From a virus: a stretch of 64,000 bases of DNA. Below the pieces are notes generated by a model that ran no database searches, was not told the origin of the DNA, and saw only the letters and a list, made by a program, of their open reading frames with translations. Below, piece after piece: positions 17,647-50,606 of this stretch; the first letter of the stretch is position 1; every line of letters starts with the position of its first letter. The stretch covers positions 47,832 through 111,831 of the IMG/VR virus record IMGVR_UViG_3300025133_000040. One strand, given 5' to 3'. Both the position numbers and the translations under genes were made by a program.

Positions 17647-18237
17647 TTAATAACCAAAGACTTCAAAGTCTTTAGCCCATGTGGTTTTGATATACTCTTT
17701 AACTTCTGGTGTTAATAGCTGGTCGTAGTCTGGACTTGGATTCACATTGTATTGAGGCAGCGAGAAGGTAATGCCCAACTCGTCCCCTATGGCTGTGAGG
17801 TCTTGCTCTAGACTCTCAAATCTAACCCATCTAGTTATGAGGTCTCGTCCTCCATACCTTAGATAGGTGTGCTGGAAGCCCGCTTGGTTGCCTCTAAACT
17901 TAAGGAAGGCTAGGAAGTCTATGTTGGTTGCTATGTTGTGCCAGGGGTGACTTTCGTTTCGCTGACAGTAGCGATAGAACGAGGCTAGCCTAGTGTAGGG
18001 GTTTCTGACAGAGGCGAAGACAATACCAAGACTGCTAAAGTAGTCCCACCCATTCTTAGCTACGAAGTGCTGAGGGTGATAGTGGTCTAGATTGGAGCCT
18101 TGAAAATACAGAATATTATGATGCGGCTCTAGGGCTTTTTTAATGCTGGAGCCACCAGTTTTTTCCATGTGAAAGAACGCTGCTACGTACTTGTTCTTAC
18201 GGTAGTAATCTCTTTTAGTAGCTTTCATACTATCCAT
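17647..18237 (-). CDS. sulfotransferase family 2 protein
   Basis: HMEKTGGSS, VRNPYTRLASFY, RFESL, DFEVFGY; start placed downstream of the terminator. Confidence 0.85.
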   Translation of the reverse strand: MDSMKATKRDYYRKNKYVAAFFHMEKTGGSSIKKALEPHHNILYFQGSNLDHYHPQHFVAKNGWDYFSSLGIVFASVRNPYTRLASFYRYCQRNESHPWHNIATNIDFLAFLKFRGNQAGFQHTYLRYGGRDLITRWVRFESLEQDLTAIGDELGITFSLPQYNVNPSPDYDQLLTPEVKEYIKTTWAKDFEVFGY

Positions 18238-18238
18238 C

Positions 18239-18267
18239 AAAAAAAGTGGACCCCCGAAGGGGTCCAT
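18239..18267 (-). terminator. intrinsic terminator
   Basis: TGGACCCC TTCG GGGGTCCA followed by a T run. Confidence 0.85.
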
Positions 18268-18326
18268 AAAATTTCCCAAGCCACCCTTTGAGTAGAACGT
18301 ATCCCCCAAAGTCACCGTACACAGTA

Positions 18327-18441
18327 CAACTATTACCACCTACCGGCGAAAGTAAGGGTCGAGGGTTCGCCCTGTTATAAGACCACGCTGATAGAACCCG
18401 CAGGTAGCTAGGCGTGCTTAGTACAGACCCTCACATAGTTG
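18327..18441 (-). ncRNA. candidate multiply pseudoknotted RNA in the tRNA-Ile trailer
   Basis: several crossing complementary segments (see findings). Confidence 0.5.
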
Positions 18442-19190: not shown

Positions 19191-19194
19191 GTAG

Positions 19195-19265
19195 CTGGCC
19201 CCGAAGGATTTGCACCTTCGCGAAGACATTCAGAGTGTCTCATGCTACTGTTACATCAGGGACCA
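19195..19265 (-). tRNA. tRNA-Gln(CUG)
   Basis: loop CTCTGAA; T-loop TGCAAAT. Confidence 0.85.
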
Positions 19266-19271
19266 GTAAAA

Positions 19272-19832
19272 AAGAGAGCTTTAGCAGTTTATTCTCTCAG
19301 CTTGTGAGGTCAACCTGTTGGTTGACCACTACACGACCTATAACAGCCTTCGCAAGCTTCACCCCTGTCGTTGCAGCTTTAGACCGCACGCAACAGCACG
19401 TTAAATTAGTGGTAGTTGTTCTGGACTTGGTGATTGGTGGTTGCAGCCACCGAACCCCTCATTCGTAAATCTTCAAAGCCTGGGAAGCCAATCCGATTTA
19501 CCCCTTGCGGGCAGCGTCACCAACTTTCGCCGGTAACCGTAGGCACTTCCACCTACCACTATGGTATTTTATTTCCCAGATTCATATTAGCGATGAACCG
19601 ATGACGTACATCAGGAAAACACCCAAAAACTATCGTTCCTTCAAGCAGACACTTGGGATGGCACCCACGCTCTTGCTGTTCAGCTACTAGGTGATTTCTG
19701 TAATGCCACTTACATACTCCACCACGCACCACGACACTGTTAGGGCGATGGTAAGCCCCTCCAACGTACACGCTTTCGTCTATGCTGCAAGCAGCTTGGT
19801 CACCCGTCATACCGAAAGGGTAAACCAGTTTA
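19272..19832 (-). ncRNA. large structured ncRNA, ROOL-like (~560 nt)
   Basis: fills the gap between two tRNAs; many GNRA-capped hairpins; segment GGTGCGTGGTGGAGTATG...TAGCTGAA resembles ROOL as I recall it. Confidence 0.6.
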
Positions 19833-19855
19833 AAGTCCCGACGACAGTGGGACAG

Positions 19856-19924
19856 AGCCTACATCCGGTGTCGAACCGGATAGTCGTCTTTACAAGAGAC
19901 AACGCTGGAGCCGCCAGTGTAGGC
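19856..19924 (-). tRNA. tRNA-Thr(UGU), short D-arm
   Basis: loop CTTGTAA. Confidence 0.8.
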
Positions 19925-20382: not shown

Positions 20383-20521
20383 AAATTGCCCACTGTCGTG
20401 GGCTCTATCCACCACCGTGAATAGATAAAACCATTGATGCGTTGAGTCTGTCATACTGCGCATCTTTATACGACTCAACCCACATAAGTGACAGCTTACG
20501 GGTCTGGTTGTCGTGGTTTAG

Positions 20522-20636: not shown

Positions 20637-20664
20637 AGTATACACCTAAACCGCCTCAAGTCAA
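20637..20664 (-). promoter_or_regulatory. promoter TTGACT-N16-TATACT driving the left tRNA/ncRNA cluster
   Basis: repeated motif directly upstream of tRNA-Val. Confidence 0.8.
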
Positions 20665-20835: not shown

Positions 20836-21462
20836 TTAGTGATACGAAGTCCCTTTGTCGTGGTGGTCTACACTTTCAGGCTCTATGTGCCTCATGTACT
20901 CCACAATGTCATCCAGTAGCATTGGGGTGTACCTTTCAGAGTTAGGACCATGACAGTCCATGCCCACGTCCATCTGCCTGCCACAATCCCTAGTGTAGGT
21001 GCCATGACAGTGACCATATAGGTTGATAGACCCTCGACCTACCTCGTTCCACGACCCCAGAGGATAGTGACCCATGGTAATCAGCTTCTTACCGTGTCTA
21101 AACTCTCGGTATCGTCTGATGGTGGAGAAATGCTTGGTGTGCGCCTCTCCCTTGAACTTACGATTCTCTGGGTCTAGAGTGTCGTCGTGGTTACCTAGTA
21201 ACAGGTGAATCGTACGGCACTTGATTCGCGCACGCATCCCAGGAATGTCCCTCGGACCCATGGCGAAGTCGCCCAGGTGAATCAGGGTATCGCCCTCACC
21301 AACAACGCTGTTGATGTTGTCGATAATGGTGCTATCCATCTCGTCCACAGAAGCGAAGTCTCGGTAGCCCTTATCCCAGGAGGACAAAGCAGGCCCGCTG
21401 ATATTTACATGGCCGAAGTGAGTATCGGCGGTTACAAAGATTTTATTCATTCTATTCTCCAT
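20836..21462 (-). CDS. calcineurin-like metallophosphoesterase
   Basis: DTHFGH, HLGDF, GNHD, GHCH. Confidence 0.9.
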   Translation of the reverse strand: MENRMNKIFVTADTHFGHVNISGPALSSWDKGYRDFASVDEMDSTIIDNINSVVGEGDTLIHLGDFAMGPRDIPGMRARIKCRTIHLLLGNHDDTLDPENRKFKGEAHTKHFSTIRRYREFRHGKKLITMGHYPLGSWNEVGRGSINLYGHCHGTYTRDCGRQMDVGMDCHGPNSERYTPMLLDDIVEYMRHIEPESVDHHDKGTSYH

Positions 21463-22492
21463 GCTTTAAAGCATACTTGTTGCTGATGACCTTGAAAGAC
21501 AGGGGCTTTCCCAATACCTCGTTCCAGCCACCGCCATTAGCTAGGCGAACCACGATTCCTTCAGCGCGACTGCCGTTAGCGTACTTGGTTTCGTCAGCTA
21601 GTTCTAGCAGGCCCTCTAGTGTCCAAGTAGGACACTCCTCGTCTGCTGGGCCTAGGTAGCACAGGTCTACCATGGTAAGCTCATATTCCTCACAGAACTT
21701 TTTGGTCTGACGGTAGTTCAGAGTGTAGTCCTCTTCAATATCGAACACGTTGAATACCCTGAACTCAGGCTCTTTCAAGCCCTCTCGGTTGTTCTGAATA
21801 CCAGGACCAACAATCTCACCCTGTACGACGCAGTTGTCGGGCAGAGCGGCAAGTGAATACTTTAAAGCCATCCTACCGTAGACACCACCGTCAATCTTTA
21901 GCTCCATATTGCGTGAGCAAATACGAAAATGATTGTCTTCCATAATATAGGTAGCAGATGTACCGTCATGCTTAACAGAGATATAGACTTCCTTACCCTG
22001 AATCTTTTCAATGAGAGAAGGTAGGTTCTGAATCCTTTCCTCGTCTGTCTTTGAGACCAAGTGAGTAGGGAAGTGACCAATAGCATCTGCTGACTGAGGT
22101 GCGGGCTTCTCGTACTTGAGCACTTCCAGTGCCTCGGTTACGTCGTCGCCTTCTGTTACTAGAGGTCGCACAGGAACAGTCCAAGTTACTCCCTCGTCCT
22201 CAACTTCTTCTAATCTATCTAGAACAGATAACGGAAAACAAATTCCCTGTGAAACTACACCACGTAGCTTGATTGTCTTGACTCTGAACTGCTTGTTCCG
22301 AAGGAACTCAAACTCTGGTCGCTCTGGAAGGATAGAATCCAACGCCACGTAGACGCAGAGGTCACCCTCTTTGAACTCGCCCTTCTTGGCGACCACGGTC
22401 CAGCCTAGTACCTTGATTAGCTCTAGGCTATCAGCATTGTCATGTGGCAGTACAGAGGCCACCCTTTGAATTGTTGCTAGTTTGTTACTCAT
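21452..22492 (-). CDS. RNA ligase, DRB0094/Rnl5 family
   Basis: N-terminal OB (HDNADSLE, LRGVVSQG), KTDEERIQN, KHDGTS, QGEIVG, EGIV, SFKVISNKY. Confidence 0.9.
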   Translation of the reverse strand: MSNKLATIQRVASVLPHDNADSLELIKVLGWTVVAKKGEFKEGDLCVYVALDSILPERPEFEFLRNKQFRVKTIKLRGVVSQGICFPLSVLDRLEEVEDEGVTWTVPVRPLVTEGDDVTEALEVLKYEKPAPQSADAIGHFPTHLVSKTDEERIQNLPSLIEKIQGKEVYISVKHDGTSATYIMEDNHFRICSRNMELKIDGGVYGRMALKYSLAALPDNCVVQGEIVGPGIQNNREGLKEPEFRVFNVFDIEEDYTLNYRQTKKFCEEYELTMVDLCYLGPADEECPTWTLEGLLELADETKYANGSRAEGIVVRLANGGGWNEVLGKPLSFKVISNKYALKHGE

Positions 22493-35232: not shown

Positions 35233-35979
35233 TTACTTCTCCAAAACTTCGACAACTTGTTTAAAGGCTGCAACGTGACCGTCGAGGTCAGACGCTTTCA
35301 AGCCCTGTTCTTTAAAAGCCTTACCTAGTCCAGGCCAGAATCCTGCCCACGATTTAAGTGCGGCACTAGGAAGGGCAGTAGCAACTCGCACCTTCGCTTC
35401 ATTTACCATTGTTGCTGCGTCCCATGCTTCTGGGTTCGCTTCAACTTCTTGGCAGATATTAGCATAAACATCTGCAACCTTACCCTTAAACGTCAGCCCA
35501 GCCTCGTCAACCTTAGTTAAAGCAGCGGTAATCTTTTGCTTAAAGGCGTTGCTTGGGTTTGGGTTGGGGTTGGGGTTTGGATTGGGGTTTGGATTAGGAT
35601 TGGGGTTGGGAGACGGACCAGAACCTAAAACCTCAATAGTAGCAAAGTGCTCATTATATTGAATGTTTTTCTTAAGGTCTGGAACACTGGTGCCATCGGG
35701 CTTCCAGTCTGGGTCAACCTTAACGTCAACCGAGATTGTAGTAAGCCTAATCTCGTACTTACCGGGAGGAGCCCAAACGTGAAGGCCCCTGCCGCTATCT
35801 ACCACAATCTTTACTGCCGGACTAGGCACATTCCAAATATAAACATCAGCCTCAGCTTGTGCCTCGACAATGATAGGCTTATGCGCATCAACCTTGTCTG
35901 GGGCACTAATTTGCGCACTCACCGGCACTGAAACCAGCATCATAATAGAAGCCAATAGTCCGATAGTCCACTTTTTCAT
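35233..35979 (-). CDS. secreted protein with (PN)n linker
   Basis: signal peptide, PKD-like domain, PSPNPNPN linker. Confidence 0.75.
   Translation of the reverse strand: MKKWTIGLLASIMMLVSVPVSAQISAPDKVDAHKPIIVEAQAEADVYIWNVPSPAVKIVVDSGRGLHVWAPPGKYEIRLTTISVDVKVDPDWKPDGTSVPDLKKNIQYNEHFATIEVLGSGPSPNPNPNPNPNPNPNPNPNPSNAFKQKITAALTKVDEAGLTFKGKVADVYANICQEVEANPEAWDAATMVNEAKVRVATALPSAALKSWAGFWPGLGKAFKEQGLKASDLDGHVAAFKQVVEVLEK
35554..35612. repeat. 6-bp imperfect tandem repeat encoding (Pro-Asn)~10
   Basis: GGGTTT/GGGTTG/GGATTG units. Confidence 0.9.
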
Positions 35980-36072
35980 AGTTATCTCCTAGTTACGTAG
36001 CGGCACAACAATCCGTCCTAGCTCGCTACCATTTTCACAAACCCGCTGCTCCTAACAGCGGACATTAATTAA

Positions 36073-36145
36073 GAGAGGAAGGACGGAATCGAACCGTTTG
36101 ACATTGGAGTTGCAATCCAACGCCCCGCCACGAGGCATTAGTCTC
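36073..36145 (-). pseudogene. tRNA-Cys(GCA) with broken acceptor stem
   Basis: good D, anticodon (TTGCAAC) and T arms; 5' acceptor strand is the end of the upstream CDS. Confidence 0.65.
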
Positions 36146-36710
36146 CGACCTCTGATACTACCTTATCATACCCCTTAAACTTAGTTTGCAGGCCCCTTTT
36201 GGCTGCCACAACATTTTCAAGGTCGAAAAGCGTGAGTTTTCCCTTATATACACCCATATTCTGTTTTATGCAGTCTGGGAAACACATTTTCGTTTCTTTC
36301 GTCCTCTCGCAGAGAAGACCAATCATCTGAGCCCACTGGTGTTCGTTGTTTAGTCTTTTGGCCTTGTGCATTACGTAGCCACGAACATCTGCGTCATCAT
36401 CAAGTATAACGCCAACAAGGGCAGAGGTCAAGGTGGAATCGTAAAATTCTGAAAGGACTCCGTCTAGGATGTTGCTTGCCCATAAAAAATCTTTAGCCCA
36501 TAATTTATATATTGTATCACCTCTAGCAAAAAGCTCTCTACGGTATATAATGTTGCGAGTCTTATATCCAGTTCCCCATGGTTCCGGCCCCTTCTTAGTA
36601 ACTAGTCTCGCTGTTTCTTCGTAGCGGAACGTCTCGTAGCCGTGAGCGGCCAACATCATCACAATTGGAATGAACTTGTCGTCATTTGTGGTGAGGCTTG
36701 GTCTTCGCAT
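36138..36710 (-). CDS. protein-kinase-like (APH-type fold) protein
   Basis: IYKLW, GYVM, DCIKQN (DxxxxN), LFDLE. Confidence 0.55.
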   Translation of the reverse strand: MRRPSLTTNDDKFIPIVMMLAAHGYETFRYEETARLVTKKGPEPWGTGYKTRNIIYRRELFARGDTIYKLWAKDFLWASNILDGVLSEFYDSTLTSALVGVILDDDADVRGYVMHKAKRLNNEHQWAQMIGLLCERTKETKMCFPDCIKQNMGVYKGKLTLFDLENVVAAKRGLQTKFKGYDKVVSEVGD

Positions 36711-36964
36711 CTAGAAACGCCTTATATTTAGCCCGGTAGACTTGAAACGCATCGTCTTTTGATGTATGTTTAGAACATCTTAATGTAAGACGGCTGATTG
36801 CTGGTTGGCAGCAGCAAGTTCCATCCCCTAAAGTGTGTTGGCAAACGGGCTTGAATTCTTCTATTAGTTGTTTTATTGTCTTGCCTGTGTCTGTCATCTC
36901 ATTTTGTAAAAAAAATTTTTTGACGATTTGGTTTAAACGGCTACTTTTAGAGCTTCGCTCTTAA

Positions 36965-37228
36965 ATAAAAAGGCGAATCGTCTGACATTCGTCTAGGCTT
37001 TTCAGCCTTCCCCACCATTACGTGAATGTGGCAATTACTCACCACCCAAAGATGCACTAACCCGACTATCACTAGGTCGCTCACGCCCTAAGTCTGTTTA
37101 GCTTGCACGCATTGTGGTACAAGCGGCCTAAGCCTCCCACAAGGAGCGATTGTGCCCTGAACTTGTCCTCTAGGTGCTACGCACCCAGCGTCAGACTATA
37201 TAGCCAGGGTTCTGTAAATTCGTCTCAT
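36965..37228 (-). ncRNA. candidate independently transcribed structured RNA (~265 nt)
   Basis: own promoter, many hairpins, terminal hairpin plus T run, no ORF. Confidence 0.65.
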
Positions 37229-37234
37229 GTCTAA

Positions 37235-37262
37235 AGTATACACTAGAACGGGCTGGAGTCAA
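37235..37262 (-). promoter_or_regulatory. promoter TTGACT-N16-TATACT
   Basis: repeated motif. Confidence 0.8.
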
Positions 37263-37272
37263 CCTTATTCCA

Positions 37273-37298
37273 TAAAAAAAGCCACCTTTCGGTGACTT
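37273..37298 (-). terminator. terminator of the main tRNA array
   Basis: AAGTCACC GAAA GGTGGCTT followed by a T run. Confidence 0.8.
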
Positions 37299-37301
37299 AA
37301 G

Positions 37302-37374
37302 AGCAGTTAGAGGGAGTCGAACCCGTCGTCTAAGCATCGGCAATGCCTTGTAATGACCGTTATACGATAACTGC
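37302..37374 (-). tRNA. tRNA-Gly(GCC)
   Basis: loop TTGCCGA. Confidence 0.85.
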
Positions 37375-37378
37375 TTAG

Positions 37379-37449
37379 TAGGCCATAATGGAATCGAACC
37401 ATCGTCATCTGCACGTCAAGCAGATATTCTACCATTGAAATAATGGCCC
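37379..37449 (-). tRNA. tRNA-Val(GAC)
   Basis: loop TTGACGT. Confidence 0.88.
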
Positions 37450-37453
37450 AAAG

Positions 37454-37525
37454 TGCGACTGCTCGGTACTGCCCCGAGTTCTCTGAGTTGGAAGCCCAGC
37501 GTTCTACTATTTCTACTACAATCGC
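37454..37525 (-). tRNA. tRNA-Gly(UCC)
   Basis: loop CTTCCAA; atypical T-loop GGCAGTA. Confidence 0.8.
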
Positions 37526-37537
37526 GTGGTTAATCTT

Positions 37538-37684
37538 TTATCTAGCTCTATATGTCGTAGTTTCACCACAAGACCGACACCTGAAAAACGTCCTAAACTC
37601 AGACGACGGCGAAATGTCAACCATGTTAAAAGAATTACAGTCCTTGCAGACCGGAATAAACTTTCTTAGCAGTTTATAAAACAT
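37538..37684 (-). CDS. 48-aa zinc-ribbon protein (missing from the ORF track)
   Basis: AAGGAAAG RBS; MFYKLLRKFIPVCKDC...CRSCGETTTYRAR. Confidence 0.65.
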   Translation of the reverse strand: MFYKLLRKFIPVCKDCNSFNMVDISPSSEFRTFFRCRSCGETTTYRAR

Positions 37685-37932: not shown

Positions 37933-38769
37933 AAAAGGGTCAATGAGACTATAATCACCATGAGTAATCTTTTGTTGTCGTACTCACAACGTCCGTTGGA
38001 CGATTTACGCCTCCGAAGAGAACTCCTGCCAGGGAGTCGATTAACAACGTGTCCACCTACCAAGTAGGTAATCACTCGCGACTGCAATATTTAAGAGCCT
38101 GCGTTAGCTCTATCTAAACAACTACTCAACCGCATCCATTAACTCTGCCTTGCGAGCAGTTCAACTCCGCTAGGAGTTTAGTCGCTTTCCTCGATTAACT
38201 TGATTGACCTTGCGAGTCGCCCAAGTCAGTATTACCCCGAAGGGCTACCGAATTAAGTCGCTTTCGTTGTCTAGTGTGTCAGGACTTTTGCTTTGGTTAA
38301 AAATACAGGAATCGAACCCATACAGATTGTTTGATACAACAATTGCCCTACCGTTAGGCTAATTTTCATTTGGCGAGAGACGTGCTGACACAGTTGCTCC
38401 ATATCCTTTTGGGATGCAGAATACAACACGCCTCTCTGTACAGAGTCTTGCGGACTCTTATACCGTAGTTCAAGAGAAGGTGTGCCCCCTCTCTCTCATA
38501 CTACCACATCCCACTTGTTTGCAGCTTGCAGAATGTAGTTACTGTTCCTTCCTCAGAAGTAAACTGTTAAATCCCTATCCCAGGCTATCACCTCTGGGAA
38601 GTAGTCGATAGTGTTACCCTCGTGCTACTTTCAGGCAGTCGTTCTTCCTATTGCCCATTACAGGACAACAAGGAAAGGTCAGCTTGAATGAATGGACTCT
38701 TACGAGCGACAGCTTGCCACGCTGCCTTTGGGGAGATTGCTCTCCTTACCCTAATGACTTCATACAGCC
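37933..38769 (-). ncRNA. GOLLD-like giant RNA (~840 nt)
   Basis: lies in a tRNA array; GTGTTGTATT..CAAAAGG..AGCAACTG segment, CTCGCAAG hairpins, 3' TAGTCTCA, embedded tRNA-like element. Confidence 0.75.
38294..38368 (-). ncRNA. tRNA-like element embedded in the GOLLD-like RNA
   Basis: D and T arms, encoded CCA, non-canonical anticodon loop TGTATCAA. Confidence 0.65.
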
Positions 38770-47376: not shown

Positions 47377-47875
47377 GATGTCCCTTTTTAGGTGTCTTCC
47401 AGTCTAATCCATACAGCCTATCAAAGTAGGCTGTCGGACACGAAACAGTGTTAAATGTTCTGCCGCAAAAATCTACAGTCCCAAATTCATCTAGTTGCCA
47501 CTGAGGAATACTGTATTTCATACATTGATACTTCTCGTTTTTTAACTCAAACATATAAATATCCATAGGGATTTTATCAGCGACAATTGTTAAAATCTCT
47601 TTAGTCTGCCTAACTAATTGATAAGAGGTCTCTTTAATGGCTTGTACTATTTTGTCTGCGTCGTCGTGGAAAATAGCAACATCTATATCTAGGTCGTGCG
47701 AAATAAATTTTTTATCGCGACAGGCTGCCAAGGCCGTTCCAAACACCAGCCAATGTTGCACCTCACAGCTATCGAACAGTTCCGACACGCCTAGTAAAAA
47801 CCTTGAAGCGTCCTTGTGGTTTAGCTCATTGTTTCTTTGATATACTTTAATCTTTTGCCTAAGTGCCTTGTCCAT
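47363..47875 (-). CDS. LicD-family nucleotidyltransferase
   Basis: GTALAACRD..ISHDLDIDV, YGLDWKTP. Confidence 0.85.
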   Translation of the reverse strand: MDKALRQKIKVYQRNNELNHKDASRFLLGVSELFDSCEVQHWLVFGTALAACRDKKFISHDLDIDVAIFHDDADKIVQAIKETSYQLVRQTKEILTIVADKIPMDIYMFELKNEKYQCMKYSIPQWQLDEFGTVDFCGRTFNTVSCPTAYFDRLYGLDWKTPKKGHHAQQ

Positions 47876-50224: not shown

Positions 50225-50252
50225 TAAAAAAAGCCCCTCGATTGAGGGGCTG
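50225..50252 (-). terminator. tmRNA terminator
   Basis: AGCCCCTC AATC GAGGGGCT followed by a T run. Confidence 0.85.
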
Positions 50253-50254
50253 AG

Positions 50255-50606
50255 TGGAGATGCGGGGAGTCGAACCCCGGTTCTGCATTGAAACCACATA
50301 AACATTCTACGTGCATAGTAACTACTTTTTAGGTCGAGTAACCAGACCGATACGTCTTTCCGTAAGTCAAACCGCTCTTAAGCGGCCAAAGCAGCATCAA
50401 AACTGGATGCACTGACTACGCTGACCTGCGCAGTTGAGGTTCCGTTAAAGCTACGGAAGGAACTCTTTTTGGAAGGCGAACCAACCAAAGCAACATCAAA
50501 GCTGTTGTTAGCATTTAAAATTGTAAACGATTTTTTACGTGGCCCTTCGTTCAACCACGGCACGCTACTTACACTTTATCCAACCAGTCGATACCATTTC
50601 ATCCCC
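50255..50606 (-). ncRNA. ssrA: tmRNA
   Basis: 5' GGGGATGAAATGGTATCGAC, 3' GGTTCGACTCCCCGCATCTCCA, G3:U, tag frame ending ALAA*. Confidence 0.95.

Follow-up and report, generated by a model that had tools for sequence, protein, structure and literature searches.

A structured non-coding RNA of about 588 nucleotides in a phage tRNA operon probably represents a family outside Rfam

What fills the gap between the genes for tRNA-Thr and tRNA-Gln in an uncultured, tRNA-rich phage, and does it belong to an RNA class that is already described? To our knowledge, only a handful of non-coding RNA classes from bacteria or phages exceed 500 nt (OLE, GOLLD, ROOL and HEARO). The gap lies in the window analysed here, a stretch of 64,000 nucleotides (positions 47,832 to 111,831) from a 111,831-base IMG/VR virus record (IMGVR_UViG_3300025133_000040) that is ~74% complete and has a G+C content of 46%; the nearest cultured phages reach at most 34% identity in the DnaE-type polymerase. 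A first-pass annotation, made from the letters of the window, had placed a ~560-nt structured RNA at 19272-19832, between the two tRNAs, and had likened it to ROOL, with a new class as the fallback. ROOL RNAs measure ~500-660 nt, come from phages and prophages, in many cases next to tRNA islands, and lack an ORF; they contain many hairpins and pseudoknots together with a poorly conserved internal region, and they can be highly abundant (PMC12286853; PMC5643018). The evidence set out below indicates that the structured RNA is real, in a slightly longer unit (19266-19854, minus strand), and that this unit is probably the gene for a ~588-nt structured non-coding RNA of tRNA-rich marine phages whose family lies outside Rfam.

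In the tRNA-rich stretch around the element every gene lies on the minus strand. The RNA unit (589 nt) takes up the whole gap between tRNA-Thr(UGU), directly upstream at 19855-19924, and tRNA-Gln(CUG), directly downstream at 19194-19265, both on the minus strand and both called by ARAGORN (the latter also by the Rfam tRNA model at 49 bits). No spacer separates the element from its neighbour on the 5′ side, and 1-2 nt do so on the 3′ side. Upstream of the operon, a promoter-like site (TTGACT-16-TATACT; 20637-20664, minus strand) agrees with the consensus at 10 of 12 positions, a consensus match only, and downstream there is a strong intrinsic terminator (18247-18266, minus strand) with an 8-bp GC-rich stem followed by T7. 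Since these two signals bracket eight tRNAs, three small ORFs and the RNA element, the element seems to belong to a tRNA operon. A long sulfotransferase-like ORF (17647-18339) reaches into the terminator with its 5′ end; since the database protein has 206 aa, the true start of the ORF is probably downstream of the terminator. Among 5.8 billion proteins, only three are related to this flanking protein, and the identical protein occurs on six contigs.

Several other features of the phage concern RNA metabolism or large RNAs. At 20836-22492 (minus strand), 1-2.6 kb upstream of the RNA, the phage encodes a metallophosphoesterase together with an RNA ligase that has a PHA02142-type OB-fold domain, so that RNA-repair genes adjoin the tRNA operon. 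The annotation's claim that the same phage carries GOLLD was borne out by a full-length Rfam match in another tRNA cluster (37943-38436, minus strand, 171 bits), with a tRNA-like insert at 38294-38368. A phage-encoded tmRNA was found at 50252-50606 (minus strand, 119 bits with Rfam). Upstream of the window, the DnaE-type DNA polymerase (phrog_405) is split into two ORFs ~1 kb apart (G000:C1:32900-34585 and 35657-37561, minus strand); an intron, intein or homing endonuclease gene may lie between them.

A full-length homologue of the element was identified in IMG/VR contig 3300025122_000042 (L026; 2982-3558, minus strand, 577 nt), which was reached through the 30-nt flank of a diverged relative from the marine metagenome run X8 that matched in IMG/VR. 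The two copies are 77% identical over their full length (nhmmer E 9e-101). The L026 copy, too, is set in a tRNA array, with neighbours unlike the window's tRNAs: tRNA-Met(CAU) lies directly downstream, and upstream there is a tRNA-like element (L026:3562-3642, minus strand) with a good T-arm, GUAGGUUCGAUUCCUGC, and an acceptor 3′ strand, which ends 3 nt before the RNA homologue. This tRNA-like element was missed by ARAGORN, and its sole Rfam match is a weak, 16-bit tRNA-Sec-like one. Outside the RNA, the DNA of the two phages aligns only in scattered genes at 65-89% identity, and the homology between the two copies begins and ends at the tRNA borders. The 41.7-kb L026 record yielded no GOLLD, an uninformative result for a 13%-complete fragment.

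Further relatives came from metagenomes. A near relative in run X8, ~96-99% identical, retains the RNA with borders at 19268 and 19860, although 30 nt have taken the place of the downstream tRNA-Ser and tRNA-Gln, and 81 nt that of the upstream tRNA-Thr and small ORF. The diverged X8 relative differs at 60 positions with 11 gaps over 19267-19632, and has window positions 19689-19772 swapped for 83 other letters; its homology stops exactly at 19267 and 19854, and its flanks are unlike those of the window. A 260-nt contig of run X13, alignable over 19358-19400 only, represents a third lineage. Further searches returned no additional copies within their scope. The 589-nt query had no match among INPHARED phages with blastn in distant mode, and the RNA was absent from the IMG/VR relatives of the nearby RNA ligase (L002-L015, at most 40% identity) by nhmmer and blastn, as well as by BLAST on five full records and by a covariance model of the core (R1). 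Among the sequences reached, R1 found only the window and L026 copies. An exact 22-mer from the variable domain and a 30-mer of the X13 relative each gave 0 matches in IMG/VR. The core patterns GAAA-N10-CTGCCCGCAAGGG and TTAYCCCTTGCGGGCAGY, with or without the GNRA loop, gave only chance matches in coding DNA or a terminator across IMG/VR, JGI metagenomes and GTDB genomes; these patterns are too narrow, since L026 reads CUC-GAAA-GAG at the hairpin concerned.

Folded as a single sequence, the element scores z -2.5. RNAalifold applied to the pair gave 152 base pairs, 28 of which are changed on both sides yet still paired; two full-length sequences (window and L026) were compared, and the covariation therefore represents one pairwise comparison. 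Because the consensus fold is fitted to both sequences, controls were run. In 100 column-class shuffles the consensus energy was -103.9±7.0, as against -156.1 observed (z -7.4), and the number of double changes was 8.5±3.1 with a maximum of 15, as against 28. The plus strand gave a weaker signal (z -4.8, 17 doubles). With the variable blocks removed, the 481 well-aligned columns that were left (82% identity) contained 14 doubles versus 3.6±1.8 in shuffles (maximum 10), with an energy z of -5.1; 31 of the pairs in these columns occur as G-U in one copy or both, in keeping with the minus strand. In cross-prediction, where a fold derived from one sequence was tested on the other, 21-23 doubles were obtained, compared with 4-14 when partners were slid by 1-3 columns. 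The element thus has a conserved multi-domain secondary structure backed by compensatory changes between two sequences. Many helices in the invariant blocks carry no covariation signal, and the fold there is a predicted one. The first-pass annotation had named the lack of an Rfam match together with the lack of covariation as telling against its reading; the Rfam match is indeed absent, and covariation is present.

In alignment columns (column = 19855 minus the window coordinate; all parts on the minus strand), the consensus fold runs from 5′ hairpins through a variable domain, a three-way-junction block and a core with GNRA hairpins to a 3′ domain. The 5′ hairpin H1 (columns 2-20, 19835-19853) has an invariant stem and a 9-nt loop, ACUGUCGUC. 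A candidate pseudoknot partner for the loop sequence UCGUC (columns 11-15) is GACGA (columns 75-79, 19776-19780): the two read UCGUC/GACGA in the window and UCAUC/GAUGA in L026, with one double change (G13>A with C77>U). An alternative pseudoknot between the H1 loop and columns 484-490, 7 bp long in the window, is broken in L026 and was rejected. Outside the element, the hairpin GCCCACGACAGUGGGC (20388-20403, minus strand) contains an 11-nt exact complement of the H1 loop; a pairing between the two was also discarded, as the hairpin has no counterpart in the 14-kb L026 locus and the loop change is compensated inside the RNA. Hairpin H2 (columns 28-58, 19797-19827; GGUUUACCC/GGGUGACC) follows, with pair 29-57 changing from G-C to A-U.

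The variable domain (columns 82-165, 19690-19773) consists of two hairpin arms whose sequence has been rewritten; columns 83-165 are 41% identical between the copies, each of which still folds into stems at the same columns. Within it, a hairpin with the invariant loop GUGGCA (columns 146-151, 19704-19709) has all four of its stem pairs changed on both sides around the identical loop. The next hairpin (columns 178-211, 19644-19677) exposes the invariant loop UGCCAU (columns 192-197, 19658-19663) and has two covarying pairs, 186-203 (C-G to U-A) and 188-201 (U-A to A-U). The loops GUGGCA and UGCCAU are fully complementary and invariant in both copies, which makes them a candidate kissing interaction, one that carries no covariation and whose match arises in ~5% of loop shuffles. 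The most conserved block (19563-19640) combines a GAUA-loop hairpin (columns 215-230) with a three-way junction (columns 232-292); over columns 214-296 the two phages show ~5 differences or gaps.

The core domain (19407-19561) is closed by a long-range helix (columns 294-305/437-448) with three double changes (297-445, 298-444 and 304-438). It contains a GAAA-tetraloop hairpin (columns 318-339, 19516-19537; GUUACCGGC-GAAA-GUUGGUGAC), supported by two double and four single compensatory changes around an invariant loop, and the GNRA hairpin CCC-GCAA-GGG (columns 344-353, 19502-19511), which in L026 becomes CUC-GAAA-GAG by a double change that leaves the loop a GNRA. The segments 354-360/384-390 and 366-370/374-378 have one double change each (359-385 and 367-377). 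A further hairpin (columns 404-419, 19436-19451) has the invariant loop CUGCAA, which includes the self-complementary UGCA and might be a contact site.

Downstream of the core, a hairpin domain (columns 454-494, 19361-19401) has one pair changed on both sides (469-481) and several single changes. The 3′ domain (columns 497-556, 19299-19358) shows indels in metagenome contigs and carries a replaceable terminal hairpin, GGUCAACC-AACA-GGUUGACC (19308-19327), which gives way to the GNRA-capped CUCC-GAGA-GGAG in L026. An internal promoter-like site (19286-19313) was dismissed, being located inside this replaceable hairpin and not conserved in L026. In helix 497-505/548-556 the pair 499-554 changes from C-G to U-A, so that for the hairpin GCUU-GCGA-AGGC (19346-19357) covariation favours another partner (column 499 with column 554). 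At the 3′ end (19267-19298), a GAGAG...CUCUC stem or closing-helix strand precedes an invariant U6 tract; CUCUUUUUUA in this region is invariant. Columns 60, 71, 561 and 577 change together from G-C to A-U, and because they do so, a 5′-3′ closing helix and two local hairpins are indistinguishable. The best-supported helices are 294-305/437-448, 318-339, CCC-GCAA-GGG, 354-360/384-390 with 366-370/374-378, 178-211, 497-505/548-556 and H2. All five hairpins listed in the first-pass annotation are present on the minus strand, and four of the five are retained in L026 through compensatory change or a substitute hairpin.

The close fit between the element and its tRNA neighbours raises the question of whether the RNA has a function once released. 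A cis-acting part of the tRNA operon, for instance a scaffold for processing, a spacer controlling which tRNA matures first, or an attenuator or terminator of transcription, would account for an element that abuts tRNAs on both sides in two phages and whose 3′ stem and invariant U6 tract resemble a weak terminator. However, the 589-nt multi-domain fold, the 90-nt invariant blocks and the long-range helix exceed what any known spacer or attenuator needs, the unit is intact in the near relative that lacks the downstream tRNAs, and the RNA is conserved while the flanking tRNAs differ between phages. We consider a purely cis-acting role quite unlikely; it and the ribozyme reading discussed below are the main rivals to a free structured RNA.

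RNase P and the tRNA 3′-end nucleases have established roles in the maturation of tRNA ends, and the arrangement suggests how a free RNA could be made. Transcription from the promoter-like site near 20664 would take in both the tRNAs and this RNA; judging from position, 3′ processing of tRNA-Thr would leave the 5′ end of the RNA, and RNase P cleavage at the 5′ end of tRNA-Gln would leave its 3′ end. Where the tRNA is absent, as in the near relative of run X8, the invariant stem and U6 may define or protect the 3′ end.

Large ribozymes typically share the size, GNRA tetraloops, (candidate) pseudoknot and invariant unpaired junction stretches seen here, and the genes for the OB-fold RNA ligase and the metallophosphoesterase are 1-8 kb away, as might suit a ribozyme or RNA-processing RNA, be it one with self-cleavage at the borders or one whose targets are tRNAs or host RNAs during infection. 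Against this, no Rfam model of a group I or group II intron, RNase P or any ribozyme matched the element at E≤10, no catalytic-core motif was recognised, and tRNA processing is a sufficient explanation for the borders. A ribozyme is, in our assessment, distinctly unlikely.

The resemblance to ROOL, from which the question started, was examined with covariance models. Across the gap between tRNA-Thr and tRNA-Gln, none of the 4227 models of Rfam 15 reached its gathering score; with permissive filters and E≤10, the sole extra match in the 801 bases around the element was to a human lncRNA model (14 bits), and both copies of the RNA gave only noise-level matches to eukaryotic models (14 and 12 bits) that differed between the copies. 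The ROOL model (RF03087; 574 positions, gathering score 99.1 bits) had no match at E≤10 on the window copy, on the L026 homologue or on the whole 112-kb virus record. As a positive control, the same tool and mode were applied to the gap between LSL_1884 and LSL_1886 of Ligilactobacillus salivarius pMP118, where the published ROOL of strain UCC118 is located (PMC5643018). There the lncRNA scored 130.4 bits (E 2e-28), and since the same search recovers a true ROOL at this score, the negative result for the element is meaningful. The GOLLD model (RF02032), likewise, had no match at E≤10 at the element, in the window copy or in L026, and it is functional here, as it found the phage's real GOLLD; the element has no sequence similarity to that GOLLD. 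Neither Rfam 15 nor the literature searched contained a further large phage RNA class that would take in the element, and a description elsewhere is possible.

A very divergent member of the ROOL family would be in keeping with the size (589 nt versus 574 model positions), the phage origin and the tRNA-island setting (PMC12286853), and a 7-nt AGUAGCU in the element resembles AGUAGCC of the ROOL consensus. The likeness claimed by the first-pass annotation thus stands for size and tRNA context and fails for the covariance model. Phage origin and tRNA islands are common to ROOL and GOLLD, and are not diagnostic. The segment that had been likened to ROOL, GGTGCGTGGTGGAGTATG, falls where the RNA is least conserved, in the variable domain; its sequence is largely different in L026, and the same block is replaced in a metagenome contig. 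Like ROOL, the element (589 and 577 nt) has no conserved ORF and is flanked by tRNAs in two IMG/VR contigs; unlike ROOL, which comes from the rumen or from Lactobacillales, it is marine, and its conserved blocks are different ones. Membership of ROOL is accordingly very improbable, and the conservation, covariation and exact unit borders favour the annotation's fallback of a new class.

That the gap encodes an 83-aa protein, or a decayed pseudogene of one, has a probability close to nil: the window copy does contain an ATG-started frame of 83 codons on the minus strand (19559-19810), which the annotation had already judged not credible, but it has no Pfam match, it is interrupted by 7 stops in L026, a metagenome relative has a 2-nt deletion and an 84-to-83-nt replacement inside it, substitutions between the two copies show no codon periodicity over the three phases (51/40/47 in the whole element, 24/22/22 within the ORF), and no frame is open in both copies. 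Taken together, these results describe a discrete, conserved, structured and non-coding unit, the ends of which coincide in two phages with those of tRNAs or tRNA-like elements.

Metatranscriptome contigs offer a hint that RNAs of this kind are expressed. Run X19, from a hydrothermal vent, contains a 152-nt contig (depth 10) that is identical to the window over 19410-19558 (149 nt, the core domain only). This core piece is the sole identical cover of a 2.4-kb stretch, in which the uncovered parts are not evidence of silence. A second X19 contig, 515 nt long and with a depth of 234, shares only 19515-19550 and the adjacent CCCTTGCGGGCAG (columns 305-354, core hairpins) with the element. The shared piece spans contig positions 320-355 and RNA positions 305-340, and this matching distance from the end fits a homologous RNA of similar build. 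The 515-nt contig is probably a distant, very highly expressed member of the family from another phage. Both are assembled contigs of one RNA library that give neither strand nor transcript ends, DNA carry-over is possible, and they are to be read as a hint of expression.

How the RNA might act can be considered by comparison with the large phage RNAs that it resembles in kind. ROOL is a homo-octameric nanocage held together by conserved kissing loops, and self-association has been demonstrated for both GOLLD and ROOL (PMC12286853). The structured RNA described here would presumably accumulate as a stable species during infection, and by analogy with GOLLD and ROOL its likeliest mode of action, which we suggest with low confidence, would be in trans through its folded three-dimensional shape. 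With similarly low confidence, it could associate with itself through its conserved loops, GUGGCA with UGCCAU and the UGCA-containing CUGCAA. The more far-reaching idea that it forms a third class of ornate phage RNA, with an RNA-only quaternary assembly made through the GUGGCA/UGCCAU and UGCA loops and produced alongside GOLLD, is rather doubtful; if it were true, the tRNA operons of a single phage would supply it with two distinct RNA cages or scaffolds.

The element is like GOLLD in being a large ornate phage RNA next to tRNAs, of a type known from marine metagenomes, and both have GNRA-capped hairpins and candidate loop-loop contacts. Many GOLLD members exceed 800 nt, whereas the element has 589 nt and no embedded tRNA. 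GOLLD has a universally conserved 3′ domain. We rate the element as a new family within a known kind, the large ornate phage RNAs beside tRNAs. An IMG/VR-wide screen also predicted RNAs from uncultured viral contigs by conservation and covariation, with many candidates near tRNAs, and reported motifs of 29-151 nt in at least three IMG/VR regions (PMC10690425); a 589-nt unit seen in only two retrievable IMG/VR records would not have been reported whole.

The compact definition of the RNA, with exact ends, a conserved core and a replaceable variable domain, makes in vitro work straightforward. For OLE, GOLLD and ROOL, whose biological roles are still open, RNA-only assemblies without precedent have recently been demonstrated. 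The new class, being of tractable size, would allow an independent test of whether self-assembly is a common theme. It would be a further, unrelated class in the same niche, set within phage tRNA operons and delimited by the sites of tRNA processing, and its co-occurrence with GOLLD in one genome is notable. The shared niche and this co-occurrence suggest that large folded RNAs are more than two isolated curiosities, and that they recur as modules of the toolkit with which tRNA-rich phages serve translation and RNA metabolism.
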